The position numbers and the translations under genes were made by a program. A stretch of DNA of 21,572 nucleotides from Chiloscyllium plagiosum (lineage: Eukaryota). The notes beneath the pieces are model-generated. The model saw nothing but the letters and a program-made list of their open reading frames with translations, was not told where the DNA came from and did not search any database. Positions 503 to 21,572 of the stretch are shown piece after piece. The stretch is from NCBI RefSeq assembly GCF_004010195.1, contig NC_057718.1, forward strand, positions 54,944,497 to 54,966,068, written 5' to 3'. Numbering within the stretch: position 1 is the stretch's first letter; the number at the start of each line of letters is the position of its first letter.

Positions 503-1130
503 TTGAGAGAAACCATAACAGAGCTATGCATACTTTTGCAGCCAGACTTGAGATTTGCCTCGAGAGATTGCTCTCTCTGTCTTTGAAGGTTACAGCTGCA
601 TTGAATATTTTTACAGAAGGGTCTTTATAGGCAACCTTTGGAGACCTCTGTCACATTTTTAAAATTCCGTCCACAATTGTATCACACAAATCAGGGATGT
701 ATTTTAGCCAGGGCCAATAAAATTAACTGTTTCCCTTTGGAAAACAACTGACATAGGATTAAATTTTCCACTCCTGTCATGTTCCACGGAGTACGAGACA
801 TATTTGACTATATGCACGTTACACAATGATGGTGCATTCATGAACACAAAGAGCTAAATTCATGTGAATGTGGAGCTGTTCTGTGACCACTTTGCATGTA
901 TAGCCAATCCAAGAACATGTTGAACAAAATAAGACAAATGAAAGAAATACCAGATATACAGTTGGAGTTTGTCAGCAACAGCAGCTGAAGAGGAAGACAA
1001 ATTACTGTTCGAAAGGTTAAAGTGCAGGTAGAGTACAGTGTATTTTTGGCTATCCATTTGAAACTTCTAATGGTCGTACAGGGGCCATAGACCCCTATTT
1101 AAAAATGCCTGTGCTAAGTCACAGCAGGAG
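503..1130 (+). pseudogene. Decayed PIF/Harbinger (HARBI1-like) DDE transposase fragment
   Basis: Translated across frameshifts and stops, in collinear order: LRETITELCILLQPDL (503), LKVTAALNIFTEGSL*ATFGDLCHI (583), VHNCITQIRDVF (669), FHGVRDIFDYMHV (782; cf. FPxVxGxIDCTHV), GAFMNTKS*IHVNVELFCDH (831; cf. FxNRKGxHSxNVQxVCD) and GYP (~1048). Boundaries are approximate. Confidence 0.75.
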
Positions 1131-1292
1131 ATTCTATCATTTAGTTTCAGCCATTTACCTCAGCTACCAGGAAATTGGCTTTGAAATCAACCAGTAACTA
1201 TCCCTGATATGGCGATGTCTGTGTTGGACTAGAGTGTACAAAGTTAAAAATCACACAACACTAGGTTATAGTCCAACAGGTTTAATTGGAAG

Positions 1293-1327
1293 CACTAGCT
1301 TTCGGAGTGCCGCTCTTTCATCAGGTG
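1293..1327 (-). ncRNA. Minimal hammerhead ribozyme motif (family A)
   Basis: Minus strand reads cac-CTGATGA-a-agagc-ggc-actcc-GAAA-gcta-gtg. Stem I is cac/gtg, the palindrome is AGCT and the triplet is CUA. Stem II has two mismatches. Confidence 0.7.
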
Positions 1328-1341
1328 GTTGTGGACACAGC

Positions 1342-1376
1342 CAACTGATGAAGGAGCAGCGCTCCGAAAGCCAGTG
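1342..1376 (+). ncRNA. Minimal hammerhead ribozyme motif (family A), cleavage triplet mutated
   Basis: caa-CTGATGA-a-ggagc-agc-gctcc-GAAA-gcca-gtg. Stem II is perfect, but the U of the NUH triplet is changed to C. Confidence 0.65.
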
Positions 1377-1413
1377 CTTCCAATTAAACCTGTTAGACTA
1401 TAATCTGGTGTTG

Positions 1414-2280
1414 AGTAACTATACCATCAGTATGCTTCTCAGTCTTATGTAGAGTGATGGAACATGTCATTAACAGCATTATAAAGGCAGTAGTTACTCA
1501 GCAATTGCTCACTGATGCTTAACCTGGGCTCCATCAGTGCCATTTGGCTTTGACCTCATCACAGCCTTGGTCCAAACTCAGACAAAAGAAAATTCCAGAG
1601 GAGATGGGAGAATGACTGAAATGACCAAGAGTGGGGTCAAGGAGCTCTGGAAAGTTGAAATCAGTAGGAATAAGGGAAAATTTTCCACTGGCTGGATTCA
1701 GATCTTGCACAAAATAAATGCTTGTTGCTATTAGAGGTCCATCACGTCAGCCCCAGGCACTAATGCAGGAGTTGCTCAGGGTTGTTTTCTAACCTTATCA
1801 TGACCCTGCATCCCTTCATCCTAGGGAATGTTTGCTCATGATTGAACAAGGTTCAATGTCATTTGCATTTCCTTCAGATACTGAAGCAATCTGTATCCAA
1901 ATGTGGGAAGACCTGGAAAATATTCAGGCTTGGGCTGGTAAGTGGCAAGTAATATGCACATCACAAAGTGAAAATTAAACTATCTCCCCCTTTACATTCC
2001 ACAGTATTACCATTATTGAAATCCCCAATATCAACAACTTGGGAGTTAACATTGACAAGAAATTTAAATGCATTGGTCATAAAAAATACAGTGGTTACAA
2101 AAATAGGTCAGAGCCTTGGATTTCTGCAGCGAGTAACTCACCTGCTAACTCCACAAATTCTGTCATTCATCTACAAGGCACAAGTCAGGAATGTGACAGA
2201 ATGTACTCTGCTTCAAGTACACCTCCAACAACATGCCAAAACCTCAGTGGTATCCAGGACAAAGCAGTGTACATAATCTG
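1414..2280 (+). mobile_element. Decayed L2/CR1-group LINE, reverse transcriptase region (begins at ~1180, split by the PLE)
   Basis: DLITALVQT (1552), AGVAQG (1765; cf. GVPQG), GMFAHD (1825; cf. FADD), IQAWAGKWQV (1922), LLTPQILSFIYKAQVR (2142). Multiple stops and frameshifts. Confidence 0.85.
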
Positions 2281-2399
2281 TAAGATAGTATTCCATGTGC
2301 CTTCTTAATTACTTGCTGTAACTACATACTAACTTTCTATGACTCATCTACTGGAACAACTAGATCCCTTTGCTCCTTGAAATTCTGCTGTTACTCTCC

Positions 2400-2760
2400 A
2401 TCTAAGTAATGCTTTTTATTTGCCTTGCCAAAGTGAACAATTTCACATTATACTCTGCCAGATTTTTGTCCACTTGCTCAATCTATCTATATGCATCTGT
2501 AACCTTATTATATCCTCTTCACAATACTTTCCCACCTATCTTTGTGTAGTCTACAAATTTAACTACCATGCCTTCACCATGCCTTTGTGAAAAACTGACG
2601 CCCCAACGCAGACCTCTATACAGGATAATCCTCATCAAATGCTACCAGTCAGAAAAATACCTACTCATGTATACTCTGTTTTCTGCCAGCCAGTCAACCT
2701 TCCATCCATGCTAATATCTTGCCTAATACTGCACACCATTTACTTTTCACCACGTAAAAT
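2400..2760 (-). mobile_element. Decayed CR1 LINE RT fragment (downstream part)
   Basis: Minus strand reads MVVKFVDYTKIGG at ~2531-2569 (cf. KFADDTKIGG). Confidence 0.75.
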
Positions 2761-2770
2761 GTATCTTCGA

Positions 2771-3110
2771 AAGGTTACACAATCCTTTATCTGAAATCCT
2801 CATGGCCAGCTGTTTTTCAGAATTCGAAATTTTTCGGGTTTTGGAATAAATGACATTTTCACAGTGAAATTAAAAAAATCTTACTGAGCAGCAGATACAA
2901 GTGTGTCTACTAGGAGCACTGAGACACGATTGACACCTACCAGTGCTGGGCCACACTGCCACGTTACATCTGAGTGATGTGGGTCGAGTGACTGTGGAGT
3001 TGGGTTAACTGTTTGTACGCCAAATAACCTTGTTATGCAGAAAAAAACTTCACGAAAAGCACTTTGGATTTCGGAGCTTTTCAGATTTCAGATAAAGGAT
3101 TGTCTACCTG
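2771..3110. mobile_element. Tc1/mariner-group (Tigger/pogo-like) MITE, ~340 bp
   Basis: Perfect 20-bp inverted repeat acaatcctttatctgaaatc at 2779-2798 and 3084-3103. Right end is ACCTG followed by TA; the left end is eroded. Subterminal ttttc(a/g)gatttc-type repeats; it interrupts a CR1. Confidence 0.8.
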
Positions 3111-3112
3111 TA

Positions 3113-4050
3113 CTTACATTGGCTCCCCCTTATCCACATAACATATTACTCCTTCAGAAGGTTCCAAAAAATTGTTAAAACATGATTACAGTTTCACAAA
3201 TGTATTCTGGTGTTTATTGAATACTTTGAATTTTTAAAGGACCCAGCTATAGCCTCCTTCATGGTCAATTCAACACCTTTTATTTCAGACATCAAGAAAA
3301 CTGGCCTGTATTTACCTTATTTTCTGTCTGTCTCACTTCAATAATAGAGGCATTATATTTCCTACTTTCAGTCCTGAATTGAGGGAATTTTGGAAGTTTA
3401 ATACCAATACATTGCTACCTCATTGAAGTCCATCAGGACCTGGGGACTTGTCAGTCTGTAGTTCCATTAGTTTGCTCAGTACCACATTCCTAGTGATTAC
3501 AATTCCACCAAGTTTCTGTCTGTCTTCCACATCCTAGTTTATAGCTATTACTGGTATATGTTTTGTATCCTCTATAATGAAAACAAAAGCAAAGTATTTG
3601 TTAATTTCATGTGTCATTTCCATATCATCTATTGTGAACACTGCATTCCTATTGTTAGAGAACCAATGCTAATTTTATTTATCCCTTTTCTATTTTTAAA
3701 TACCTGTAGAAACTCTTGCTACCCATTTTTTACATTTCTGGCTAATTTGCTCTACTATTCTAATTTCCTGAATAACCTTTTAGTCATTCTCTGCCATTCT
3801 TTATATTTTGGCAAATCATTTGACTTGTCACTGACCTGAAATAATTTTTTTTTTCTTTTTTGATGCTTTCCTTAATTTCTTTATGTTATTGTAGGAATAT
3901 AAGAGTTTTGTGAAATATCTCTTAAATGTATCTCTGTTGATAGTGGTCCAGTGCACTTCAGATAACTCAGCTTTCATGTTTAATATACTAATCTTAGAAA
4001 CATTCTTCTCCCTTTCAATCTGAATGTAAAATTCAATCATATTTTAGTCG
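3113..4050 (-). mobile_element. Decayed CR1 LINE ORF2 fragment (upstream part)
   Basis: Minus strand reads DKSPGPD at ~3432-3452 and CFNNFLEPSEGVICYVDKGEPM at ~3118-3183 (cf. CLTNLLEFFEGVxxxVDKGEP). Confidence 0.75.
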
Positions 4051-4455
4051 AAGACCAGAACAGGTGAAAACGGGAAGGTCTTACCCTAAAGAAGATCAGT
4101 GAAACAAATGGATTTTTATCGAAATCTGGTGGCTTTAAATCCACATTACTGATATTAATTTTATAATTCAAGATTTATTTAATTAACAGCATTTAAATTG
4201 CTCAGTTGCCATTGTGAATTTTGAACTCATGTCACTGGATTATTAGGAGGAAATGAGGACTGGAGATGCTGGAGATCAGAGTCGAGACTGTGGTGCTGGA
4301 AAAGCAGAGCTGGTCAGGCAGCATCCAAGGAGCAGGAGAGTTGACTTTTCAGACAGAAGCCACATTCCTGATGAAGGGCCTATGCCTGAAATGTCAACTC
4401 TCCTGTTCATTAGATTATCAGTCCACTTTTCTGGATTACTAGATCTATAACACAA
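4050..4455 (-). mobile_element. tRNA-derived SINE (same family as 7400-7830), interrupted by a PLE end
   Basis: B-box-like gagttcaaaat on the minus strand (4218-4228). The body aligns by eye with the copy at 7400-7830. Confidence 0.6.
4247..4406. mobile_element. Penelope-like fold-back end, family B, hammerhead motif on + strand
   Basis: Tail is on the left. Inverted segments caggagagttgac / gtcaactctcctg. CTGATGA(4368)-a-gggc-ctat-gcct-GAAA-tgtc. Degenerate TSD tcactggattattag (4232-4246) / tcattagattatcag (4407-4421). Confidence 0.75.
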
Positions 4456-5244
4456 TTTCTATGTTCCATCCACTGTCTTTAATTATAATCAAGCACAGCT
4501 ATGTGGCTAAATGGAAACTTTTTTGATTATAAATGCTTAACTGTATTCAATTTAGAATCCAACCCAAGCAAATCCTTTGCTCAAAATAATAAAGATATCA
4601 TCATTCTCCTCGAAACCATTGCCTGTATGGAATAAGGTAAAATGCAGCTAATATTCCTGCATCCACTTCATTTTCTCAGGAATGTGCAGCCAAATAGTAG
4701 TTACATTTTAATGATCAAAGGAACTGACAAGGCAATCAGATCTCTGCTAATATTCAAAAAAGTTAAAATATTTTCAAGTCTGTTTATAATCACAGAACTA
4801 TTAAAATTAATTTAAGTGATTGCTAATGTCCCAGACTGCCACCTTGGGAATACAGAACACTGCTTGTCTAAAATCAGTTCAGGCTGATTCTGTACATTAA
4901 AGGTATTTTACTTCATTCAAGTAAATTTTGAAATAATCATGTAAATTTTGTAATATAACAGTGTACTAATTCAAAAAGCACTTGGCTGCAGTGTTGAAGA
5001 ATCATTCACTATGAGCACAGATAAACAGTGAAAAGTACAGGGTATTGAAGTGGTTTGTATTGTAATGATGGAAGTGAGAAGCTTTGTGTGGTTTTCCTTC
5101 CAGCAATCAACTGCTGGTACTAGTCTAAGCAACCGATAACACGTGGGGAGGATGTCCATACAAAGTCTTCAGCAAGGTCTAGGCTCAATCTAGATAAACA
5201 ATAAACAGGTTTGATATATATTACTTAGTAGCTGGTTACATCTG

Positions 5245-5340
5245 AGTGGGAACGATCAGCCATGATCATATTGAATGGTGAAACAGGCTTGAAGAGTTGA
5301 ATGACCTACTTATGCGTCTATTTTCAATGTTTTTATGTTT
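5245..5340 (+). mobile_element. CR1 LINE 3' terminal fragment
   Basis: gatcagccatgatcatattgaatgg...gaatgacctact followed by a tatgttt-type tail. Confidence 0.7.
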
Positions 5341-5614
5341 GTGTGTACGATTTTGTAATGAATCACACATCCTGACTTATCCTTTGAGTATTTCAATTGA
5401 GAAATAATCAGTCTGCTATTTTGAAGACCAATTCTGCTATTTTCCCACTTTATCTGTGCCACAGATGTCCTGTAAATGATATGGTGTTGAATTAGCTGCG
5501 TGCTGATAACAAGCTGCCACTCAAGAATTGCAAAATCTGGATATGCCATTCCTTAACTGCTGACTGCAAAATCCAGACCAGTTACAAACAAGTATGATTT
5601 ATTTAAATTGTTTA

Positions 5615-6532
5615 ACAGCCACTACCATCATTGAATCCCTTGCTATCAACTGAGTGGGAGTTATCAAACGTAACTGGACCAGCTATATAAATATTGCGGC
5701 TGTAAATGCAGTTCAAAGATTGGGAATTCTGTGGTGAGTAATTCACCTCTTGATTTCCCAAATTCTCTCTACCATGTAAAGGACAGAAATGAGAAGTAGC
5801 TGAAAATGTGTTGCTGGAAAAGCGCAGCAGGTCAGGCAGCATCCAGGGAACAGGAGAATCAACATTTCGGGCATAAGCCCTTCTTCAGCCCTTCTTTCGG
5901 CTTATGCCCGAAACGTCGATTCTCCTGTTCCCTGGATGCTGCCTGACCTGCTGCGCTTTTCCAGCAACACATTTTCAGCTCTGATCTCCAGCATCTGCAG
6001 ATCTCACTTTCTCCTCAAAGAAATGAGAAGTACAATGGAATACTCCCCACTTGCCTGGATAAATACCATTCCAACGGCACTCAAGAGGCTCAATACCATC
6101 TCGACTAAAGCAGTCTGCTTAATGCCATACACCACCTAAAACATTCAACCCCTCCAGCACCATTGTCCACAGTACTAACCATGCATACCATTTACAAAAT
6201 GCCATGCAGCAATTCACTCAGGCTCTTCTCAAAGTACCTTTGAACTCTGCAGGAACTATCATCAAAAGGAACATGTACATAGATATTTAGGAACACCACC
6301 ACCTGGTTCTTTATTCCAATAACACACCATCCTGGAAATATATTGGCACTTCTTCATTGCTGCTCGGTCACAATCTTGGAAATCCCACCCTATAGCATTG
6401 TGGGTGTACCTACATCATAAGAACGATAACGGTTGAAGAAGCTGGCTTACAGCCAAGTTCTCAAGGCTAATTCAGATTATGGATTAAATGTTGGCCTTGT
6501 CAGCGATCCTGACATCCCATCAATCATAAAAT
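5615..6532 (+). mobile_element. L2/CR1-group LINE 3' part, interrupted by a PLE at 5799-6018
   Basis: MEYSPLAW at 6035. Collinear with 2000-2280. The 3' end (gttgaagaag...ctcaagg...aaatgttggcc...catccca) matches the tail at 15005-15210. Confidence 0.8.
5799..6018. mobile_element. Young Penelope-like fold-back insertion, family B
   Basis: 82-bp arms 5798-5879 and 5899-5980 with 2 mismatches, both at CpGs; tail 5981-6018. Perfect 14-bp TSD agaaatgagaagta at 5785-5798 and 6019-6032. Minus strand reads CTGAAGA-a-gggc-ttat-gccc-GAAA-tgtt. Confidence 0.9.
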
Positions 6533-6889
6533 AGAACATTCTGAACATTAAACAATATAACAGAAGGAGGAATCAGATGTTTACTTGTAATAAAATGTAT
6601 TGTGTGGAATTTTCATTCTGAGGCTCAGTATGGAGGCAGATCAAAAAACAGGAGGGATTTCCACTTGGGGGCAAGATGGATTTCTCATACAATTAGGTTC
6701 ATACAAGCTTATTAACATATTTGTACTTAGGCAAAATGCCTGGCAAGCAGGTAGGAATTTCTGAAGTCCACAGGGATCTTTCAGCCATTATATTGGCACT
6801 GAGATAGCACTTCACGGTCTGCAATCCAGGATCATCAATGGACCTCAGCTCCCCACTGCCATGCATCCTTGTGATTTTAGACACACACA

Positions 6890-7105
6890 AAAGAAGAATG
6901 CTGCACACTTCAGGTGTTCTCCCGCAGGGCATCTACGAAACAAGGAAAGTGGTGTTTCCCAGGGCTAGCAACACAAGGTCATCCTGAATCACCAAGGTGA
7001 CTTGAATGGAGGTTGCTGCAGCAGTTTTCACCTATGGCAAAAGAAAAGCTGCTGTCATCATACAAAGATATCTCCTACACTGTTGTTCACACATCTGAAG
7101 GTAAC
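6890..7105 (+). pseudogene. Decayed Harbinger Myb/SANT-like DNA-binding ORF fragment
   Basis: VLPQGIYETRKVVFPRASNTRSS*ITKVT*MEVAAAV in one frame from 6916; TGA sits where the conserved Trp of AWxEVAxxV is expected. Ends near AAG|gtaact at 7100. Confidence 0.55.
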
Positions 7106-7399
7106 TACAGTGCCTCTGTACACGTGACTTTCTCTGTCGTCTGTTCTGCAATGCTTAAGAGACTGGCTCCCCTCCTCATGCACAACTTCCCCATTCACAG
7201 CTGAAGCCTCCTACACCTCAAGTTTCCAATTCTACTGTCATAGCACTTCCTTTTTTCTCTTTATCTTCTTAGTCTCAACAATGCTAAAACTACTGCTGGT
7301 TTCAATAATTCTAGCCTCTGGAATGGAGGTACTGATCTGTAACAAAATGGTAGGATGCTTTCCATTTAAGGTCTTGACACAGTCACTTCACGTTTGGGC

Positions 7400-7830
7400 C
7401 CTTATCATTCTGGGGTATGGGCATCACTGGCTAGATCAGTATTTATTGTCCATTCATAATTATCCAGAGGGCAATTTAGTGTCAACCACATTGTTATGGC
7501 TCTGTGATCAGAAAAGCCAGACCGGGTAAGCATGGCAGATTTCCTTCCCTATAAAACGTTCATGAATCAGATGGGTTTTCACAACAGTCAGCAATGATAA
7601 CATGGTCATCACTGGATTTTTGGATTGATCATTGCATCAGGTTTTTTTAGTTGAATCCAAATGTTACCATTAATGGCAACTAGGGATGGGTAATAAATGC
7701 TGGCCAACCAGTGATACTCACATCCCACAAATGAATAAAAATAATCTGCCATGGTGGGATTCAAACCCATGTACCCAAAATGTTAACCTGAGGTTTGGGA
7801 TTACTGGTTGAGTGACATTAGTATTGTGAT
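7400..7830 (-). mobile_element. tRNA-derived SINE with L2-type 3' tail
   Basis: B-box ggtttgaatcc on the minus strand (7757-7767). The tail at 7405-7460 is antisense to the LINE tails at ~6470-6530 and ~15140-15200. Confidence 0.7.
7675..7744 (+). mobile_element. 70-bp LINE/SINE 3' tail fragment nested in the SINE
   Basis: ggcaactagggatgggtaataaatgctggcc...catcccacaaatgaataaaa, similar to 15140-15210. Confidence 0.75.
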
Positions 7831-8499
7831 GGGGAGCCATGCTGCTCCTACTGCCACTGGTTCATGGAGAGGTACACCCCATTAACTCTCCATAAACCTT
7901 GAGTGTTTTTTTCTCTTTCCTAATGCTTCCATGTGCACAATATTTGTTTGCTTTATCATTGCTTTCCATGCATGTAGTAATTTGCACAATATGATTCTTG
8001 TTGTCCTTCATTACCATCAATGATGTAACCCTTGCACATTGCTTCCATAACATTTCCTTCCCCATGCCATTAACTTTCATAAGAATGGGCCTGTGAATGG
8101 TCTTGATCAGCTGATTGTACCTTAATTCCACACTGCTTCTCCCCATCACATTCCCCAGAGCTGCTGATGAATCTTGGTCACTCTTCTTGTGAAAGGCTTC
8201 TTGTGAATGACTGGAACTAGTTGTGAGATTGCTGTTTGTAGCTTTTAACCCTTATTCATCTTTAATATGCACTGATTGATTTGCTTCAATGCAAAGACCT
8301 TAATGGGGTACTCAGAAAACAGTTTTCTTCACTTCAGTTTTGACAGATGGTTTTGAGTGTGTGAATGCTATGCATACAAATTCAACACTTTTTTAGATAA
8401 TTGACTGCAATTATAGAAAGTCACAATCCGAAGCAATTTCTTACCTAAAGGTCACGATTATTTAAAAGGGATTTGGTCAAATGGCTCCAACAAGTTGTA

Positions 8500-9290
8500 T
8501 TGAAAAATAACAGATATTTATACATTTATTAATATGGATAAAAATAACAGGTAAAAGATTAATTGGTTAACAAGAAGTATAGAAGAGGTGTAAATGGGTA
8601 TTTTTTGGGTTGTCAAGCTGGGTCTAATGGAGTGCCGCAGGGATCAGGACCTTAGGATTCACAATCTATATCAATAACTTGGATAAAGAGACTAAATATA
8701 TGGTTGGTAGATTTAGGTTAGAGTGGTGCTGGAAAAGCACAGCAGGTCAGGCAGCATCCAAGGAGTAGGAAAATCAATGTTTCTGGCAAAAGCCCTTCAT
8801 CAGGACTGAAGGCCTTCAGTCTTGATGAAGGGCTTTTGCCTGAAACGTTGATTTTCCTACTCCTTGGATGCTGCCTGACCTGCTGTGCTTTTCCAGCACC
8901 ACTCTAATCTCGACTCTGATTTCCAGCATCTGCAGTCCTCATTTTTGCCTGGTTGGCAGATTTACCAATTACACCAAAATAGGTAGAAAAGTAAGTTGTC
9001 AGTAGTATCAAAGATTCTGCAAAGGGATTTGGCAGGTTAAGTGAGTAAATAAAAATTTGACAGATGGAATATTATGTGGGGAAATATGAACTTGTTCATG
9101 TTTGCAGAAAGAGTAGCAAAGCAGTTTACTATTTAAATGCAAACAAATTGGTGAACTCCGTTGCACAGAGAGATCAGGTGTCCTGATATCTGCATCACAA
9201 AGATATTACTATGCAGACACAGCAAGTGATTAGGGAGGTAATTAGAATGTTGAAATTTAATGAAAGGGTAATGAATTATAAAAGTAATAG
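8500..9290 (+). mobile_element. Decayed CR1 LINE RT region, split by a PLE
   Basis: GVPQGS (8629), TIYINNLDKETKYMVGRF, then FTNYTKIGRKVSC after the insertion (cf. FADDTKIG), and *QMEYYVGKYE (cf. WQMEYNVGKCE). Confidence 0.85.
8716..8949. mobile_element. Penelope-like loop-less palindromic insertion, family B, two hammerhead motifs
   Basis: 95-bp arms 8718-8812 and 8813-8907 with 3 mismatches and no spacer; tail 8908-8949. 15-bp TSD tggttgg(t/c)agattta at 8701-8715 and 8950-8964. Confidence 0.9.
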
Positions 9291-9437
9291 CTCACAGATT
9301 CATGGAGCATCAGGTAAACTGAGGGCCAGAGATTAGACCAATTACTACTAGAAGAAAAATATTGATATGACAGCTTATACTTATTTCAAAAGGATATCAA
9401 AAGCAGTTAAAACCCCAATAACATGGATTTATATGAT

Positions 9438-9650
9438 AGAAACAACTTGCCTTTTATATTGTATCCTTGATATCTTTATCTTAGCCTAAAGCGTTTTGCA
9501 GCCAATGTGACCTTATCACTTTATAATGTCGGAAACATAGCAGTCAATTTGCACATACCAAAGCCTCACAAATAACAAAAAGATAATGGCCTGAGAGTTA
9601 GTCTGTTATTAGTGACATTGGTTTGTGGATAAATGTTCACCAAAACACTA
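9438..9650 (-). mobile_element. Deu-domain-type SINE (AmnSINE1/SacSINE1-like), 3' half
   Basis: Minus strand gtgcaaattgactgctatgtttccgacatt...cattggctgcaaaacgcttt...tataaaaggcaag resembles the 3' region of this SINE group and the copy at 16998-17125. Confidence 0.6.
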
Positions 9651-9725
9651 ATGTAATTTAAATATAGCAACTTAAAGTGTTTAATTTAAAGTAAAAATGT
9701 ATTTTAAATACAACTGATCGACAGA

Positions 9726-9875
9726 AAGGGCTTATGCCCGAAATATCGACTCTCCTGCTCCTCAGATGCTGCTCCTCAGATGCTGCTCCTCAGATGCTGC
9801 CTGACCTGCTTTGCTTTTTCTAGTGCCACACGTTTGGACTCTGACTCTCCAGCATCTGCAGTCCTCACTTTCTCC
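9726..9875 (+). mobile_element. Penelope-like 3' end, family B, single arm with partial hammerhead
   Basis: agggc-ttat-gccc-GAAA-tatc (CTGATGA box lost), running through the tail ccagcatctgcagtcctcactttctcc. Confidence 0.8.
9755..9800 (+). repeat. Tandem repeat, 14-bp unit x3
   Basis: ctgctcctcagatg three times exactly (9755-9796), followed by ctgc. Confidence 0.95.
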
Positions 9876-9969
9876 AAAAAACTTTAAAATGGGTTTACTA
9901 GTAGCTTGACAAACATTTGCTCTAACTTTCATAAAAACTGATGTGTAGAGATTGTTTCTTTTCTGTTAG

Positions 9970-10190
9970 AATCACTCTCTTCAGCCTTCCACGCCACCTA
10001 CTCCACTAAACTAGGTCTAATCAAGACCACAAATAATATTCTCAATGAGGACGAGGGTGCATTCTTCCTCCTGTCAACTGTTCTCGGTAACTTCTGATAC
10101 AATCAACTGCATAACCCTTCTCCAAAGGCTGTTTTCCATTGCCCCACAGGGCAGGACCTGACATGGCATGTTTTCCATCTTACCCAATAT
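9970..10190 (+). mobile_element. Old L2 LINE RT fragment
   Basis: FHATYSTKLGLIKTTNNILNEDEGAFFLL from 9987 (cf. FRxxHSTETALxKVTNDILxxDxG). Confidence 0.65.
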
Positions 10191-10904
10191 TCCCTAAAAA
10201 CTACAAGTACTCACAACCATGAAACAACCCAAGAGTTACAGCACAGGCTGGTCAAAGTCATCCCCTTTAAGATGGTGCTTGTGCACAGCTGTGCAAAACA
10301 AAATAAAGGTTTGCAAAACTTGTGAATAGATAGTACAACCAAAGATATCAGAGAGGTCATTGCTCTTGCTTCATCAATTGTAATCTCAGCAGCTCTAATG
10401 ATGTTTTAACTTCTAGTTTATCTGTGGTTGTTGTTACTTTGTCACCCTCAAGCTACTGTCTGGTAATAACAATGTCCAGATTCACCCTGATGTCACTCAG
10501 CTTGACCTCTTTCAGCTTCTTCATGTCGTGATGCTGTCAATCTGCCACTTCAAAATGTATCATTATTTTCTCCAGTGAAACAGCAGGAAAATTCAGCCAT
10601 TTTTATTCTTGCTAATTTTACATCAGATGACTAAAACCTTGGTCAAAGAAGTAGCCTCCAAGGAATAATTAAATGATGAAATAGTTATGTGGAATGATAT
10701 TTGTGACCTCGATAAAAGTTGGGATGTTAGGTTGCAAAAACAGTGAGACAATTAAGGTTTGGTTTTTTGAGAAGACAGACTATAATAGCAGATTTAAAGG
10801 AGTGAGGGATAACACATGAATAGAGAGAACCATTTACAACATGAACTAAGATTGAGGCCAGGAGGAAATAATGGGGGATCAATTTAGCAGAACTATAAGG
10901 CTGT

Positions 10905-11575
10905 AAGGACTAAGAACAGGAGTAGATAGTTCAGTCCCTTGAGCCTGCTTTACTGTGAGCCTGCTCTACTATTTAATGTAATCAGGGTTGATCTCATCAC
11001 AGTCTCAGCTCCACTTTCCTGCCTCCTCTCCATAATTCTTCAACCCTTTATAATTAAACATTTGTCCATCTCTTCCTAAAATTTACTCAATATCCTGGCA
11101 TCCACTGTATTCTGGCATAATGAAATTCCACAGATTCATGAACCTTTGTGAGAAGTAATTCGTTTTCATCTCTGCTTTAAATCAGCCACCACTTGTCCTA
11201 AAACTATGACCTCTTCTTCCAGATTAGCCCATACGAGGAAGCATCCTCTTTATGTCTACTTTGTCAATCCCCTTTAGAAACTTATATACCTCAGTTGGAT
11301 CTCCTCTCAATCTTCTAAACTCCAAATATTATTGGCCTAAATTGCTCAATCTCTCTTCATAAAAGAAAAATCCTCATATGTGAAATCAACCAAGAGAAAC
11401 TTCCTCTGAACTGAATCCAATGCAACTACATCTCTCCACAGGTAAGAGTAATAAAATTGTATGCAAAACTTCAGAAGTGGTCTCATTAATGCACTGTACA
11501 GTTGTACCAACACTTCTCTACTTTTATACTCTATTACTCTTGCAAAAAAATTGCCAAAATTCTATTCGCCTTCCT
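10905..11575 (-). mobile_element. CR1 LINE 3' region
   Basis: Starts agaacaggagtag...ttcagtcccttgagcctg, which is antisense to the CR1 tail at 5245-5340, and continues into ORF2 C-terminal sequence. Confidence 0.8.
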
Positions 11576-11869
11576 TTCCTTCTACTTGCCTGAAGGAAAC
11601 ATGAGCTCAAAGGCCATGAGGGCACTTAAGAGAGAAACTAAAGAAACGTGGGTAAAGTCAAGGGGAACACTGTAGGATGTTTGGGCAAGTGGAGGGGAGG
11701 AAAACAGCAGGAGCAACTTAAAGAATGGTCTCAATCTGAGTGACGAAGAAATCCATGAGCCCCTTATACTTCCTTGTAGAGGTGAGGGGGGTTGGGAGGC
11801 AGAATCTTTACAACACCCATTGTCCATGTAGGTGAAATATTAATTCCATATTTCTTCTGAGAGACAAAA

Positions 11870-12350
11870 GGCTGAATCTTTCTTGAAAAAAGAACGTCCT
11901 GGTGTTAGGACCCAAACTACATTGTGTGGCCTCTCAGGCAGGACATGAAGTGGATTTTGGTGCCTGCACCTGGCAGATGTGAAGGCCAATCAGAAGGGGT
12001 GATGGCTAAGCAGGTATCCTGGCAGGTGAAATAGAGGTGCCATATTTAAAGAACAGCAGCACTTTAAAGTCATCACAAATAGCAATAGCCAAAAGGTAAC
12101 ATATACAAGAGCTGATTTCAAGGAATGGCTGCAGTTAGAGGAAGAATGTCAGCCAGATTTATGATGCCTCTAAACAGAAATGGCACAATGTAAAATGCTT
12201 TTCTCTGGCAGGGAAAAGAAGAGGCCTTTAAACCTCACCAAGAAGGCATGGCAGGAGGTCATAGATGAGGTCAGCAGCCATGGGATGGTCACATGGCATG
12301 TTGCAGTCACAAGTAATTCAATGGCTTGTGATCCCACAACATGAGTAAAT
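11870..12350 (+). mobile_element. Harbinger element 5' end with decayed Myb/SANT-like ORF (12125-~12330)
   Basis: MAAVRGRMSARF/DAS (12125), MLFSGREKKRPLNLTKKAWQEVIDEVSSHG (12195), K*FNGL (12311; cf. KRFNDL). Upstream are a TIR-like ggctgaatct (11870), CCAAT (11986) and tatttaaa (12043). Confidence 0.7.
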
Positions 12351-12629
12351 TCCATGATTCTGAATTTCACGAAAAGCAGCAAGGAAATGTGACAAGTGAT
12401 TGATAACTAAGACATCTGGTATTACATGGCGCTAGTCTTCACACTGAGAGGTACAGTCAACAGTGTCCCCTGTCACTGCCTAGAAAATCTTCAGAAAATA
12501 ACTCCTACTAATGGAATTGTTTGAACTATTATGATGGCCTCTCAAAATTAGAATGAGAAATTAGTATTGGATTATTTTTTCACTGCAACATAGATTAAAA
12601 TTGTTCCAAATGATTAAATGATTTGATTT

Positions 12630-12955
12630 GGGCAACACAGTGGCTCAGTGATTAACATTGTTGCCTCATAGATTTGGGGACCTGGGTTCAATTCCAGCCT
12701 GAGATGGCTGTCTGTGTGAAGTTACATGTTCTCCCTGTGTCTGCATGGATTTCTGCTGGATGCTCTGGTTTCCTCCTGCAGTCCAAAGATGTGGTTGTGG
12801 AAAATTGACTTTAATGTCCAGGAATGTGCATGATAGGTGAATTAGCCATGGTAAATGCAGGACATTGGGATTGGGTCTTGGTGGGATGCACTTTGGAGGG
12901 TTAGTGTAATCTTGATGGGCTGAATGACCTCTTTCCACATTGAGGGATTCTATAA
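12630..12955 (+). mobile_element. HE1-like tRNA-derived V-SINE, near full length
   Basis: A box tggctcagtga (12641), B box ggttcaattcc (12685), V-domain-like ttctccctgtgtctgcatggattt, and CR1-like tail gatgggctgaatgacctc. Confidence 0.9.
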
Positions 12956-13375
12956 TTATAAGTTCTTGTTTGAATTAAAAAAAAATCTAATTTGTAAATG
13001 TAGAGGCTAGAAACATTGTGCTAACACATTGCACCAATTAGGCCTCCATTTCTTTTCATTGTCCAATGTTGCTTTGGTAGCTATTCCTTTAAACCCATCA
13101 TAAACATATCGAGTTTAACTTCCAAGTATCACTCCATAATGAATAATGTTCCTGATGCAGTATTACCAAATTAATTGGTTATAGCCTGAGATATTGTTAA
13201 CTTACACAGAGTTGGGTAATTGCTTCAGTTTCAATTTGACGAAGATTTCATTTTGGAATTGGTAATTCAAATCCATAAAGTCCCAACAATAAAAAATATA
13301 TACTGGTCTATTTAAATTAAGGTTATGTTGGAAAGTTCCATGAGAACTCAGATATATTTTAACAGCTAACCACAT

Positions 13376-13653
13376 CATAAAGTTCCTACAGTTTGGAAAG
13401 AGGCCATTTGGCCCATCAAATCTGCACCAACCCTCCAAACATCATCCCATCCAAACCCAAGCTCTAACCTATAGCCGCACATTTATCATGGCCAATCCAG
13501 CTAACCTGCACTTTGGAAGGAATCTGGAGTGCCCAGTGGAAACCCACACAGACACACAGCAAACATGCAAACTCCACACAGACAGTCACTCAAGGCTAGA
13601 ATTGAACCTGAGTCCTTAGCACTATGAAGCACCACTGAGCTACCATGCCACCC
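13376..13653 (-). mobile_element. HE1-like V-SINE
   Basis: Minus-strand A box tagctcagtgg (13632-13642) and B box ggttcaattc (13599-13608); same body and tail as 12630-12955. Confidence 0.9.
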
Positions 13654-13867
13654 AATATATAATCATATTGTTTGCTATGTGCCTCTTAATTTTCTCATTC
13701 ACTTGAAATTTTAAACATAAAATGAGATCTGACATAATGCTTCATCACCATCACAGACCAGACTGAGATCATTTGATGATATAAATCTAATTCAGTCACT
13801 GCTAGGTGTGTGAGATTGTGCTGATGGTCATAAATGATCTCTTGGAAAGTGAAATATTTTCCTGTTG

Positions 13868-13971
13868 GCAAAAACAGAAATTGCTGGAAAAGCTCAGCAG
13901 GTCTGGCAGCATCTGTGGAGCAATTTCTGTTTTTGTTTCTAATTTACAGCATCCATAATTCTTTTGGTTTT
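13868..13971. mobile_element. 104-bp Penelope-like fold-back end, family C, no hammerhead
   Basis: 17-bp perfect inverted repeat caaaaacagaaattgct at 13869-13885 and 13919-13935, then a tail. Perfect 13-bp TSD tattttcctgttg at 13855-13867 and 13972-13984. Confidence 0.85.
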
Positions 13972-15004
13972 TATTTTCCTGTTGATTTAGGCACTGTGAC
14001 TGATCAAAAGATTATGGATGGTCTTATGGGTGCAATCTATGGCTTACTGAATCTTGGGGAATACTGCCACTTGGTAAAATTACATTGTTTTGTCAACCTG
14101 CTGCCAGTAGTCCATGGGAAAGTATGTGAACTGGCATACAACAGCATTTGTGACTCCTTTGATGTGTCTGTTTGTCCAGTGAGTTTCCAGTGAATATCCA
14201 CCAGTATTCCATATCTAACATAAAATTTATGGGTGACAAGACATTTGCAGATACTTGTGGAGCAGTGCATATAATCAGGATAGGATGGATATTGGATTTA
14301 GCAAGTGTTATGAATGTGTAATTTCGTGACTCATATGTTTGGGGAAAATAATGTTTGGAAATTAGATTTTAAAGATATGATAAATGGGAAAATCTGGATT
14401 TGGGAAACTAGTGAGTACTTCTAAGATAGCTACAACTCAGTGGTGGTCCATTATTTACTTAAAGGGATTAGAGTTAGAGGTGTATTAAAAATTAATCCTC
14501 TCTTGACTTTGTAATGGAGCCAGTGAGACAGATAAAATTGCCCCCATTAAGGTTTACATTTGCATTAGCCATATCATTTCCACAGATCATAGAAATTTTT
14601 GAAAGCAATTGATAAAATAAGGAATCTTTTAAAGAATTCATCTATTTTTCAGATCAAAGGGAAGGTTGGGAGGGTTGGAGATAATTGGTTTAAATTTTCT
14701 ATCTAGAATATCTGAGCTGTACCATCTTGCTATGAAATAAACTATATAGGGAGATATCCTTTTGTTTTGGGGTTTCCCATGTAAGGTGATTAAGGAACAA
14801 TGGAGTTCCTCTTGGGTGAAATAAAAGTAGAACATGAATTGTCTTGCTGAGACATTTGGACTTAGATTAGGTGTTTATCTAATATAGTGTTAAATTAGTG
14901 GTTCTTACTGTGCTTGACTCTTGTACGATAAAGGCTTTTATTTAAAGAATGAAATCAGGCAGCATAGTTCTTTCAGTTATTAACTGGCAGTCTGAATGCC
15001 TTTA

Positions 15005-15210
15005 TCCTGACTTGGAAATATATCACCATTCCTTCACTGGGTCAAAATACTGGAATTCCTTCCCTAAGGGCATTGTGGCTCAAGCTACAGCATGTGGACA
15101 GCAGTGGTTCAAGAAGGCTGCTTACCACCACATTCTCAAGGGCAACTAGGGACAAGTAATAAATGCTGGCCAGCCATCTATGTCCATGTTCCATGATTAA
15201 ATAAAAAAAA
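15005..15210 (+). mobile_element. L2/CR1-group LINE 3' end
   Basis: Aligns with 6330-6530 and ends in aaataaaaaaaa. Confidence 0.8.
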
Positions 15211-15394
15211 TTCTGCAATGAACTGTGAACTGCAAAGTCTCTAATCCTTGTCAAGTAGAATTCAATCTGTATATGGTGATGCCTCCTTTAGTATCAGAAC
15301 AATTTAGCAATCTTTTTCTTTTTCTTGTCACATTAAATAATATTCATAAACTATTTACGAAAAGGAAAACAAAAGAGGCCCCGAAAGTGTATCC

Positions 15395-15615
15395 CACAAT
15401 TCAATAAGGTCATGACTGATTTTATTGTTACTTTAAATCCACTTTCCTGCCTCTCCCTATCCCTTCCACTCCATAACCCATGGCTCCCTTGTCAATGAAA
15501 AATCTATTGCACTCTGATTGGATATTTTTATTAGATCAGCTTCCACTGTGAACAGAATTCCAAAGGCCAGCGCCCTCTGAGAGAGGAAATTCCTACTTAT
15601 CTCCATCTTAAGTGT
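15395..15615 (-). mobile_element. CR1 3' fragment
   Basis: Aligns with 10970-11180 (tccactttcctgcct, aattcca, tgagaggaaatt). Confidence 0.7.
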
Positions 15616-16875
15616 ATGGGAGAGGCTGCGACTAAAACAGGAGAACCTCAGAAAAATGGACACAATTAATGGTGCAGGAATTCTCAGCAGCAAGAATGAA
15701 ACAAGAGCATTTTTAAAACCTTGCAATGAATTATTTTATGACAACTAAACAATTAAACTAATATACTTTTTACCTTTTCATTCCTGTACAGTGAACATTG
15801 ACACTAGTTATATATCAACATCAGTGAAACTGGAGCAATAATGATAGAAAATGAGGCATTTAAGTCTTTATGTCATTTGCACCTTATTTAACAGCTGTTC
15901 ATTTTAAGATTTCAGACAGAAGTGAGTTTGGAAAATTTGACAGGCAAGATGTTGGCACTAATGCAGTATTATAGTTGCCTAATGCATTTCTCAGCTTGCT
16001 ACAATACCACTGAAACTGTTGCCCAGCACAGACCAGGTTGTTTATTTTAAAATCCAAAATGCTGCTAATGGTAATGATTTTTTTATTTGTCAACTATCAT
16101 AGATATGTAGCTGAGGTGGCATAAAAAGGAATTAATCAGGCTTTGCTTCTGATGAACAAATATTATCTGAAGTGCATTAAATTCTTACAGAAAGTACCTT
16201 TTTTAACTGGTCTCTGGCAATAACATAACAACCTTTCTCTTCAATGAAGAAACTTAAGGACAATACTTTATGATATCCCACTTATATTGCCCACCATTAT
16301 TTTCCCATTTAAATCAATGGATGGAAATCTAAAAGGAGTCTGCCTGAGATTTTGCAATTAGCTTCCTTTTGCATGCCAGACATGTATGTGAAATTAAGTC
16401 ATAGAACATTTTACCTATTAATGTGGATGAAATGTCCCAACTGACTGTACTCATTTCGGAATCAATGAGAACTTCTGCTTCTATGCTGTAAAAAAAACTT
16501 TTGAAAAATTACACATTGTTGAATGATGGGTAATTGGGTTTTTAACAGTATATCAAATTCATAGCTACTGCTAATCCGCCTCACTGGCTCAGAAAGTAAT
16601 TTCATATTTGCTTAATGTCAGATCTCTCCATTATGATAGATTCCACAAATGTAAATAAGTGTTTGTTTTTGATGTTTTAGCTTCTCCTTTAATTCCATGT
16701 ATATATCCCAATCATTTATTTCACCATCTGTAAAATATAAAATTAATAGTGAAGGGATTCAAAGGAGTTTCCTTCCTGGTTTATTGTCTGTATTGTGGTT
16801 GAATGCTTTCCCGACTCGCTGACGTCACTGCTGGAATGCTAGCGAGTCAGAATCCAGCCACAAATAGAGGTCTGA

Positions 16876-16997
16876 CCCGATGAAGGGTCACTGGTTTTGG
16901 AACATTAATTCTGCTTTATCTCCATTGATGCTGTCAGACCTGCTGAGTTTCTCCAGCAATTTCTGTTTTTGTTTCAAATTTTCTACATCCACTATTT
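16876..16997 (+). mobile_element. Penelope-like 3' end, family C, decayed hammerhead
   Basis: ccgatgaagggtcactggttttggaacatt, then gatgctgtcagacctgctgagtttctccagcaatttctgtttttg as in 13868-13971. Confidence 0.7.
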
Positions 16998-17125
16998 CTT
17001 GCTGTGTGTAAATTAACTGCTGCATTTCTACCTTGCAACAATAATGACATTTTAAAAGCACTTCATTGGCTGTTAATCACTTGAGGATGATGGCAGGTAT
17101 CATATAAATGTAATTCTTTCTTTCA
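16998..17125 (+). mobile_element. Deu-domain-type SINE 3' end
   Basis: cttgctgtgtgtaaattaactgc...cacttcattggctgt...tataaatgtaattctttctttc. Confidence 0.6.
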
Positions 17126-17550
17126 GATCCTCTAACGGAGTTACACCTTGGTCAAGAAACCATTAGTGGTCCCAAATGGAGACCTGTTGTTCAAATGAGT
17201 GCCTCTTGCCAAAAGCTAGTGATTTCTGATGGCTTTAGACAGCAGTGCATTTTAGTTTGGTAACTGAACAGCCTGATTTTTATCTGTGTCAAAATGTGTG
17301 GCGCTGGAAAAGCACAGCTGGTCAAGCAGCACCTGAGGAGCAACAGAGTCGATGTTTCGAACATAAGCTCTTCATCAGGAATGTGGGGTGTGGGGGATTG
17401 GGGCAAGGGAGCTGATAGATAAATGGGAGGGGAGTGGGGCAGGGGAAGACAGCTAGGAATGCGATAGGTGGATGAAGGTGGGGGGGGTGATGGTGATAGG
17501 TCAGAATGGAGGGTGGAGCGGATAGGTAGGAAAGAAGATGGACAGGTAGT

Positions 17551-18012
17551 TCAAGAGGGCGGTGCTGAGTTGGAGGGTTGGATCTGGGATAAAGTGGGAG
17601 AGGGAGATAAGGAAACTGGTGAAATCGACATTGATTCCTTGTGGTTGGAGGGTCCCAACGTGGAAGATGAGGTGTTCTTCCTCCAGGCGTTGGGTGACTA
17701 AAATTTGACGGTGGAAGCGGCCCAGGACTTGCATGTCCTTGGCGGAGTAGGAGAGGATGTTGAAGTGATCAGCCACAGGGCATTTGGGTGTTTTAGTGCA
17801 TGTGTCCCCAAGGTGTTCTATGAAAAATTTGCACTTTGGCGTCCTGTCTCCCCAATGTAGAGGAGGCATATCAAGAGGAATGGACACAATAATGAGGTGT
17901 TTGGACGTGCAGGAAAATTTCTGCCAGAAGGATCCTTTGGGGCCTTGGATGGAGATGAGAAGGGAGATGTGAGTGCAGGTTTTACACCACTTGCGGTGGC
18001 AAGGGAAGGTGC
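17551..18012 (-). pseudogene. PLE Cys/His linker plus GIY-YIG endonuclease, frameshifted
   Basis: TFPCHRKWCKTCTHI, LLYIGETGRQ, PVADHFN, RLEEEHLIFHVGTLQPQGINVDF. Confidence 0.88.
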
Positions 18013-18015
18013 TCT

Positions 18016-18330
18016 CGATGTGGTCTCCTCTACATTGAGGAGACTGGATGCCAACTTGTGGAACGTTTCGGAGAACATCTCTGGGACAAATGCACTAAAC
18101 ATCCCCACCACCCTGTGGCCAATCGCTTCAACTCCCCCTCCCACTCCACCAAGTCCTGGGCCTCCTCCACTGCCAAATCCTAGTCACCCGATGCCTGGAG
18201 GAAGAACTCCTCATCTTCCACCTTGGGACCCTCCAACCACACAGACTCAATGTTGATTTCACCAGTTTCCTTATCTCCCCTCCTCCCACTTTATCCCAGA
18301 TCCAACCCTTCAACTCGGCACCGCCATCTT
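18016..18330 (+). pseudogene. PLE GIY-YIG endonuclease C-terminal half, frameshifted
   Basis: RCGLLYIEETGCQLVERFGEHL...PVANRFNSPSHSTK, then VLGLLHCQ...LEEELLIFHLGTLQPHRLNVDFTSF. Confidence 0.88.
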
Positions 18331-18999
18331 GGACCGTCCTATCTGTCCATCTCCCTTCTCACCTATCCACTCCATCCTCCACTCTGACCTATCACTATTA
18401 CTGCCAAACTTCATCTACCTATCGCATTCCTAGCTACCTCGCCCCCAACCCCAACTCCGTCCCATTTATCTCAGCTCCCTTGGCCCCGTCCCACATTCCT
18501 GATGAAGAGCTAATGCTTGAAACGTCATCTCTCCTGCTCCTCAGATGCTGTCTGACAGGCTACGCTTTTCTAGCACCACAGTTTTTGGCTCTGGTCGCCA
18601 AATTTGCAGTCCTCATTTTCTCCTACCTGATTCTTATCTGTGTCCAAGAATGATGCATCTGACTACATCTGGCATCTCCTCTACTGGAACAATGATCACA
18701 CACTTGGGTCACTTTTAATGAGAGGAGTGCAATGAGCTAGGATCTGAAACATAAAGGATAAAACTTCAGTTGGAATACACGTGGGGTGAGTTTGAAATGG
18801 AAGCAGTCACTGAGGAATGAGATGTGGCTGTGGAAGTGAGCTTTAGCAAGTATCTTGTCAAACACTAGGAGCAACTACAAAAGTAATGATGATGAACAGG
18901 AAAAAAGATTAGAATGGAAATCCTATCGGAGAGAGGTATAAAACCTCTTCAAAGTGGGTATACCTGAAAGCGATGATACTGTGCGTTAAAACTTTTAAA

Positions 19000-19343
19000 A
19001 AAAGAACTGTGGATGCTGGGAATATAGAACAAAAACAGAAATTAGTGGAGACACTTAATAGACTTGGCAGTATCTGTGGGAAAAAGCAAAGTTAACATTT
19101 TAGGTCCAGTGACCTTTATTCACATCCATTGGGAGCTAGGAAAAGGCGGTATATATGCAGAAGACAGGAGGGTGAGGTGGGGTAAAGGAGTACATGATAA
19201 GTACAGATGGAGCCCAGAGAGAGAGAGAGAAAACAGCAGTTATACAGACAAAGGGATGGACAATAGTGAGCCATAGAGAAAGAAAAGCTAATAATAAAGA
19301 CCATAAGTGATAATGGGTTGCCAACAATGAAAACAGCCCATGT
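19000..19343 (-). mobile_element. Penelope-like 3' end and UTR, family C, older copy
   Basis: gaactgtggatgctgg...aaaaacagaaatt matches family C. Stem II remnant aggtc-actg-gacct at ~19103-19116. Confidence 0.7.
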
Positions 19344-20604: not shown

Positions 20605-21278
20605 GAGGCATTGGTCACATAGTTCTGAAGACTTCAACATGGAAAAGGACAAGGATGGACTTGAAATTGAAGTTCTCAACTGGGCAAAGATAACTTTAAT
20701 AGATCAGACATGATTTGGCCAGAGTGGACTGGGAACAGATACTTCCAGGTGTCTTAGAACAGTGGGATACATTCAAGAAGGAAAAATGGAGAGTAAAGGG
20801 CCAACATGTTCCAATAAAAACAAAAGGTGAGGCCATCAAATCCTGTAAACCCTAGATATCGAGGGATGTAGAGCATTTGATTAAGAGAAAAAGGGAGGTC
20901 AGATAGCAAGGGCTCAGAACAGCAGAAGTCCAAGAGAAGGATATAATGTGCAAGAAGGAACTTAAAAAGGAGATTAGGAGAGCTGGTAAAATAAAGGAAA
21001 TCCTAAATTGTTTTACAGGTACATTAAGGGTAAAAGGATAATAACGGAAAGAGTAGGGCCCATTAAGGAGTACAACAGTACATGTAGAGCCATTGGATTT
21101 AGGTAAGGTTCAAATGAATAGTTTATGTCGGTTTTTACTAGTGAGAGAGAGACAATATGGGTATGGAAATCAGGGAGAAAATATGTGATAAAATTAAAGA
21201 AGTTAACATAGACAGAGAGGAGGTTCTGGTCGGCTTTAAAATGGATACATATTCCAGGGCCAGATGGAATATTCTGGA
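20605..21278 (+). mobile_element. CR1 LINE ORF2 fragment between endonuclease and RT
   Basis: FNMEKDKDGLEIEVLNW, DLARVDWEQ, NPKLFYRYIKGKRIITERVGP, NE*FMSVFT and PGPDG (21254). Cut off by a PLE. Confidence 0.85.
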
Positions 21279-21572
21279 TCAGTGGTGCTGGAAGAGCACA
21301 GCAATTCAGGCAGCATCCGAGGACAGGCAAAATCGACATTTCGGGCAAAAGCCCTTCATCAGGAATACAAGCAGAGAGCCTGAAGCGTGGAGAGATAAGC
21401 TAGTGGAGGGTGGGGGTGGGGAGAGAGTGGCATAGAGTACAATAGGTCAGTGGGGAAGGAGATGAAGGTGATAGGTCAGGGAGGAGAGGGTGGAGTGGAT
21501 AGGTGGAAAAGGAGCTGGGCAGGTCGGACAAGTCCGGACAGGTCAGGGGATCGAGTTTCTGGAGGTTAGAAG
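21279..21572 (-). mobile_element. Penelope-like 3' UTR and end, family B variant, runs off the window
   Basis: Same layout as 17291-17560 and tail-less. Hammerhead at 21331-21366. Confidence 0.85.
21331..21366 (-). ncRNA. Minimal hammerhead ribozyme motif, best-preserved family B copy
   Basis: attc-CTGATGA-a-gggc-tttt-gccc-GAAA-tGTC-gatt. Perfect stem II and GUC triplet; the ACGT palindrome is changed to ATGT by CpG decay. Confidence 0.75.

Follow-up and report, generated by a model that had tools for sequence, protein, structure and literature searches.

How can a retrotransposon leave behind short insertions in which two copies of its own 3' part stand head to head, only one of them ending in a tail, and both enclosed by a single pair of target-site duplications (TSDs)? 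This question is raised by a stretch of 21,572 nt from Chiloscyllium plagiosum (contig NC_057718.1, forward strand, positions 54,944,497 to 54,966,068; hereafter the window, by which we mean this whole stretch), which carries six such insertions that we labelled I1 to I6 and sorted into families A (I2, I3, I4 and I6), B (I5) and C (I1). We consider it highly probable that all six are 5'-truncated, non-coding or decayed products of the retrotransposition of endonuclease-bearing Penelope-like elements (PLEs) from three or more families, and we lean towards the view that they arose by two RNA-templated primings, that is, by twin priming at two fixed sites.

The six head-to-head units are 104-1335 nt long and each is framed by one pair of TSDs of 12-19 bp. 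An earlier note on this DNA had already placed the insertions here, with TSDs of 12, about 15, 14, 15, 13 and 19 bp, and we recovered these duplications with matches of 11/12, 12/15, 14/14, 14/15, 13/13 and 18/19, respectively. When 2000 random position pairs of the window were scored with a slop of 3 nt per side, one pair scored as well as the TSD of I1, 14 scored as well as that of I2, and none as well as those of I3 to I6. A repeat finder reported inverted arms at 1253-1416, 5798-5980, 8715-8910 and 17290-18587. On the hammerhead-sense strand, the 3' ends of both arms point outward in all units, just as had been noted, and exactly one arm per unit has a tail (6/6). We also compared the window with sequencing runs of the same organism (organism A) and of two relatives (organisms B and C); four runs were placed on positions 1000-14200, so that I6 lies outside the read placement. 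Over the 24 pieces listed, divergence from the window was 403/12,080 letters (3.3%) in organism B and 304/6,909 letters in organism C. Both relatives have a T at 4419 in the right TSD of I2, which brings its match from 12/15 up to 13/15. The parts of the units are as follows.

1193-1204, plus strand: left TSD of I1, matching the right copy at 11 of 12 positions
1205-1335, minus strand: tailed arm of I1 (family C), tail at 1205-1255 (51 nt), hammerhead core near 1324, starting 11 nt before the core
1336-1413, plus strand: tail-less arm of I1, starting 9 nt before the hammerhead core
1414-1425, plus strand: right TSD of I1
4232-4246, plus strand: left TSD of I2, 12 of 15 against the right copy, rising to 13 of 15 if 4419 is read as in organisms B and C
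4247-4361, minus strand: tailed arm of I2 (family A)
4360-4406, plus strand: short arm of I2, 47 nt, with a hammerhead core, stopping some 50 nt short of where tail-less arms usually end and overlapping its partner by 2 nt
4407-4421, plus strand: right TSD of I2
5785-5798, plus strand: left TSD of I3, 14 of 14 against the right copy
5799-5888, minus strand: tail-less arm of I3 (family A)
5889-5898, no strand assigned: junction filler of I3, 10 nt, a near re-copy of the left-arm end in the same orientation; the family continuation differs
5899-6018, plus strand: tailed arm of I3, tail at 5981-6018, family-wide 3' end near 6015
6019-6032, plus strand: right TSD of I3
8701-8715, plus strand: left TSD of I4, 14 of 15 against the right copy
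8716-8812, minus strand: tail-less arm of I4 (family A), starting 9 nt before the hammerhead core
8813-8949, plus strand: tailed arm of I4, tail at 8910-8949, zero-spacer palindromic junction
8950-8964, plus strand: right TSD of I4
13855-13867, plus strand: left TSD of I5, 13 of 13 against the right copy
13868-13920, minus strand: tail-less arm of I5 (family B), 53 nt
13919-13971, plus strand: tailed arm of I5, 18 nt in common plus a 35-nt tail, 2-nt junction overlap
13972-13984, plus strand: right TSD of I5
17272-17290, plus strand: left TSD of I6, 18 of 19 against the right copy
17291-18012, minus strand: tail-less arm of I6 (family A), 722 nt, with the decayed remains of a CX4CXXC linker and of the GIY-YIG endonuclease end, followed by a pseudo-long terminal repeat (pLTR) with hammerhead core
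18010-18625, plus strand: tailed arm of I6, 616 nt, starting inside the GIY-YIG coding part, tail at 18587-18625, with a 3-nt junction overlap suggested by two reading frames
18626-18644, plus strand: right TSD of I6

Judged by sequence, the arms appear to carry the minimal hammerhead motif of PLE pLTRs, as it is described in PMC4209133 and PMC6155905: a hammerhead-type core (CTGATGA, stem, GAAA) is present in eight of the twelve arms, in families A and C, and a core-like motif is found in a family-B arm at 16870-17001. None of the 16 matches to Rfam reached the gathering score, and most of them were to microRNA (miRNA) models, that is, hairpin artefacts. The left arm of I6 adds the remnant of a protein: a full HMMER search with its decayed translation (143 aa) retrieved 263 proteins at E<=0.001 (best 5e-21), and among ten of these that were scanned (the top match and nine of 707-927 aa), nine showed a C-terminal GIY-YIG domain and eight also a reverse transcriptase (RT) match, lying upstream of GIY-YIG, with several of these GIY-YIG and RT matches falling below the Pfam curated cut-off. 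The window itself contains no RT part. The CX4CXXC linker that precedes GIY-YIG in this arm aligns with the relatives. Since a CX2-5CXXC linker upstream of GIY-YIG marks the Neptune and Nematis clades (PMC8557442), family A reads as a PLE of Neptune/Nematis type, with I6 as the one unit that displays the GIY-YIG part, while families B and C are putatively assigned to PLEs by their hammerhead motif and their architecture. Two negative results count against this identification: a Pfam scan of three stop-free decayed pieces of the window gave 0/3, and the decayed window proteins had no match in word-indexed protein searches. The ESM Atlas returned no usable match. A Penelope-like origin, which the earlier note had brought up, is supported by the hammerhead cores together with the GIY-YIG remnant of I6.

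The two ends of the arms differ in a regular manner. The tail extends beyond the partner arm by 51 nt in I1, 38 nt in I3, 40 nt in I4, 35 nt in I5 and 39 nt in I6, in line with the prior claim that one arm stops about 35-50 nt short in five units. That this stop falls at nearly the same point within a family also proved right, with I2 as the exception that the claim had implied: the tail-less end lies 14, 12 and 12 nt past a common TTCCAGC-type anchor in I3, I4 and I6, respectively, and 15 nt past it in I5 (family B), the last base being ambiguous with the TSD in I3, I4 and I6. As for the tailed end, the read and contig joints and loose ends used here are the best-supported rows of a longer list in which repeats dominate. 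Read depth reached 33,938 at 1292 versus less than 1 in unique bins, and with an element depth thousands-fold over unique bins the family copies must number tens of thousands or more. At 6015, 9,754 reads leave into mixed flanks (agreement 0.34), showing that the tailed end is fixed family-wide. On this scale, agreement was 0.34 at the true end and 0.61-0.66 at inner points; raw reads gave 0.53 at the loose ends of 13869-13872, where tailed variants are mixed with possible tail-less ends. Inspection by eye found primer-template homology of at most one base at the tail-less ends, within chance, and 0/5 folds revealed a significant stem-loop at the start sites. An open frame running through the tail was considered and rejected, since the spacers of family A are 8, 8, 9, 9 and 11 nt long and the frame is consequently not kept. 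The tails at 5981-6018 and 13919-13971 are rich in pyrimidines and look like the tracts of 3' splice sites; in PLEs, introns are retained near the pLTR.

Looking at the inner side, all six junctions are different: a 2-nt overlap in I2 and I5, a 3-nt overlap in I6, a zero-spacer palindrome in I4, a near-palindrome in I1 and a re-copied filler of 10 nt in I3. They are not freely variable, as had been assumed before, since five of the eight core-bearing arms start 8-11 nt upstream of the hammerhead core, and this clustering makes variable junctions a weaker argument by themselves. Reads also exit the inner ends with family sequence (19,333 reads at 5888, 9,548 at 5899, 9,980 at 13920 and 6,422 at 1335), indicating that the junctions of I1, I3 and I5 are not family-wide features. 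Sister arms are nearly identical in I3 (79/81) and I4 (93/97); over a 72-column core, those of I3 and I4 match at 70/72 versus 52-63/72 to other copies. The two differences in I3 are both at CpG, and I3 is the youngest unit. What is new in these units is that each arm holds sequence without a counterpart in the other in 4/6 of them: the tail-less arm extends further inward in I2, I3, I5 and I6 (by about 135 nt in I6), while its partner has the tail, a pattern in favour of two RNA-templated primings.

On each strand, the arm that adjoins the TSD reads as a cDNA begun at the 3' end of the element, the arrangement expected where both nicks of a staggered cut prime synthesis. In the mechanism that we propose, the GIY-YIG endonuclease of the element would nick both strands 12-19 nt apart, as the TSDs suggest, and each 3' end at a nick would prime reverse transcription on element RNA. 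One nick would prime at an outer start site, giving the tailed arm, and the other at an inner start site 35-51 nt upstream, giving the tail-less arm. Both cDNAs would end prematurely, in many cases immediately upstream of the hammerhead, and their head-to-head joining would make use of a short palindrome, a brief re-copied filler or an overlap of 2-3 nt, with the TSD produced by fill-in. We infer that a single event comprised both primings, with two RNA templates or two copies of the pLTR; as both arms of I6 contain endonuclease-coding sequence, two templates or a tandem RNA would be needed there if both were RNA-primed. L1 twin priming has the same outline, in that both target nicks prime cDNA, the head-to-head junction shows short overlaps and a TSD frames the unit. 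In L1, however, the inverted part and the direct part are copied from separate regions of a single RNA, with a second start that varies, whereas here both arms are copies of one and the same region and the second start has a fixed position. The earlier proposal of a fixed second priming or template-switch site acting on both nicks is supported for the fixed second start site, while its action on both nicks would follow from the geometry and I2 lies off the fixed point.

The architecture itself, an inverted pLTR with a one-sided tail and a TSD, is already published (PMC3846280, PMC8557442). Arkhipova et al. 2013 (PMC3846280) report pLTRs in inverted arrangement, one of which may bear a 31-bp tail, along with TSDs of 8-10 bp, palindromes at junctions and an empty site; according to Craig et al. 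2021 (PMC8557442), the origin of the inverted structures of PLEs is undefined. In both papers (in the latter, the legend of Fig. 2), endonuclease-positive PLEs show an inverted 5'-truncated copy placed head to head, a tail of 30-40 bp at one end only, a TSD around the unit and palindromes at the junction, as do our units. Unlike those insertions, the present units are stumps of 104-234 nt (one of 1.3 kb) with no open reading frame between the arms; their TSDs measure 12-19 bp versus 8-10 bp in rotifer PLEs (PMC3846280), and the tail of family C is 51 nt long versus 30-40 bp in the PLEs described. PMC8969392 and PMC9977147 treat as routine that pLTRs are inverted, that short extensions occur and that truncated PLE insertions can be very short. 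Among the literature matches listed, to whose scope subscription journals did not belong, there was no report of such structures in sharks.

The fixed second start site is not new either, having been mapped in vitro by Frangieh et al. 2024 (PMC11167929) for the Poseidon element PAc of Anolis. There, both strands were cleaved and extended, two RT start sites bounded the tail, no strand difference was seen and the protein was predicted to dimerise; the steps after the first priming are left unvalidated there. Our families resemble PAc in the two fixed start sites bounding a tail, in the nicking and extension of both strands, as far as these can be carried over, in the lack of homology between primer and start site, and in the hammerhead in the pLTR. 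To the reading by twin priming, the window contributes the anatomy, the TSDs, the family identity, the fixed 3' end and the unique sequence in each arm, and the literature on another clade contributes, by analogy, the two start sites and the extension of both strands. The units add a small hint that each cut DNA end starts its own copy.

Besides twin priming, one other model remains, which we regard as rather unlikely: an antisense RNA would fold back at its 3' end and prime its own copy, and the integrated hairpin would be trimmed by the endonuclease, leaving a tail on one side. Antisense self-priming was proposed in PMC3846280, and PMC8557442 attributes the tail to endonuclease resolution. 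The palindromic or near-palindromic centres of I4 and I1 are consistent with it, as is the extra inner sequence on the tail-less arm in four of the five unequal units, which is expected if this arm had served as the template together with its loop. This inward bias fits either model and is not significant (p=0.19), the tailed arm of I1 is 2 nt longer inside than the tail-less arm, and the zero-spacer centre of I4 leaves no loop. Moreover, sense RNA was used in vitro, with both strands extended from two fixed sites (PMC11167929).

A model with a single priming, in which the first cDNA itself becomes the template, by folding back or by a switch to its own strand, and copying halts at a fixed block before the tail, appears quite improbable. 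It would account for the near-identical sister arms of young units (I3 and I4) and for the perfect palindrome of I4, but a copy of a tailed cDNA cannot hold inner sequence that is missing from the tailed arm, as is seen in I2, I3, I5 and I6, and a copy of a tail-less cDNA cannot acquire a tail. Thus, simple fold-back fits I1 and I4 only, and the unique sequence in each of the two arms rules it out for four of the six units.

Very improbable, in our view, is a non-autonomous palindromic family, MITE-like (miniature inverted-repeat transposable element) or retrozyme-like, whose copies are made as whole units. Non-autonomous units derived from PLEs do exist (bioRxiv 10.64898/2026.07.22.740005), the inner ends do cluster before the hammerhead core, and among the joints listed a few junction rows at other loci stand at 10-40x single-copy depth. 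Like MITEs and non-LTR retrozymes (PMC8969392 and the same preprint), our units are short, non-coding, very abundant and hairpin-forming or hammerhead-bearing, but they are not arranged in tandem arrays and lack the inverted repeats at both termini, the fixed TSD length and the uniform interior of MITEs. Six different junctions in three families, TSDs of variable length, a tail at one end and the thousands of reads that exit the junctions of I1, I3 and I5 with family sequence all speak against copying as a unit, and repeat words can raise contig depth artificially. The claim that these are independent products rather than a MITE family can therefore be kept for the six units, whose junctions differ and in which the sister arms of I3 and I4 are closest to each other, but not extended to those junctions elsewhere that reach 10-40x depth. 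Finally, the separate insertion of two copies into the same site, or recombination between adjacent opposite copies, can practically be dismissed despite the very high copy number and the fact that the two arms of I6 match each other (55/72 over the core) no better than they match further copies, since a single TSD pair frames each whole unit, sister arms have private columns in common in I3, I4 and I6 (3, 1 and 3 of 72) and both sides always belong to the same family.

Several further observations weigh against twin priming of independent units. The short arm of I2 ignores the fixed point, and the inward bias is also predicted by antisense self-priming. For a joint 8764>8870 there were nine raw reads, with depths of 312 and 1313 on the contig side and none in the second organism-B run, and a joint 8759>8825 had a depth of 1721 in organism C but 15-17 in organism B. 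Together with the junction rows at 10-40x depth, such high-depth head-to-head joints elsewhere could mean copying as a unit; the explanation may lie in unit amplification, in microhomology joins that recur or in repeat words that inflate depth. Contigs of organism B enter I1, I2 and I4 from the flank by 24-26 nt, and one runs 38 nt into I4, alone above the 31-letter rule that the joint tool applies to a contig match into the element; these three units hence appear to be already present in organism B and are probably older than the split between organisms A and B. On the supporting side, there is a contig of organism B at I3 that is 885 letters long; it follows 5264-5784 up to the base before the TSD, with 364 letters remaining, and this exit point is also where the tool places a joint whose common letters fit both sides, as it would for a join across an empty site. 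Judged by the first piece of this one contig, organism B probably has an empty site at I3, whose arms differ at 2/81 positions versus 3.3% divergence between organisms A and B.

If twin priming applies, the two start sites could be obligately paired in each event, a suggestion that we make tentatively. An asymmetric dimeric complex with two templates or two pLTR copies would use the outer site at one nick and the inner site at the other, never two alike, and the cDNA from the inner site would usually be the longer one. This reading is based on the 6/6 units with one tail, an outcome with a probability of 1 in 64 if each nick could take either site with equal likelihood, and on the tail-less arm being longer inside in four of the five unequal units.

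The window holds further copies of these and other repeats. Another tail-less arm of family A occupies 21268-21572 on the minus strand; it ends about 13 nt past the same anchor, runs off the window and is probably the left arm of a seventh unit. A solo tailed family-A arm at 9722-9875, without a partner arm, has a 14-nt stretch in threefold tandem, and its flanking repeat is only weak (12/14). Joints from 9875 to 13869-13872 were not used, as chance neighbours of two abundant families suffice to explain them. For the solo tailed family-B arms at 16870-17001 and 19000-19340, neither a TSD nor an inverted partner was found; a short imperfect palindrome was seen by eye just upstream of the first (about 16800-16860). 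One organism-B contig with a depth of 3658, present in only one of the two runs of organism B, joins a family-C arm (1284) to a family-A arm (4281), possibly as a composite unit amplified in the lineage of organism B. Opposite copies of another repeat, which looks SINE-like (short interspersed element), lie at 12656-12947 and 13384-13637 (within 12656-13637) and are 74-77% complementary.

Considering that the architecture has been published, no new system is needed to explain these insertions. For annotation, they carry the warning that such hairpins are neither MITEs nor precursors of miRNAs, in spite of 16 sub-threshold matches to Rfam. Short and very abundant units with intact TSDs record both priming points and both stopping points of single events, and the tens of thousands of copies could let counting decide between twin priming and antisense self-priming.

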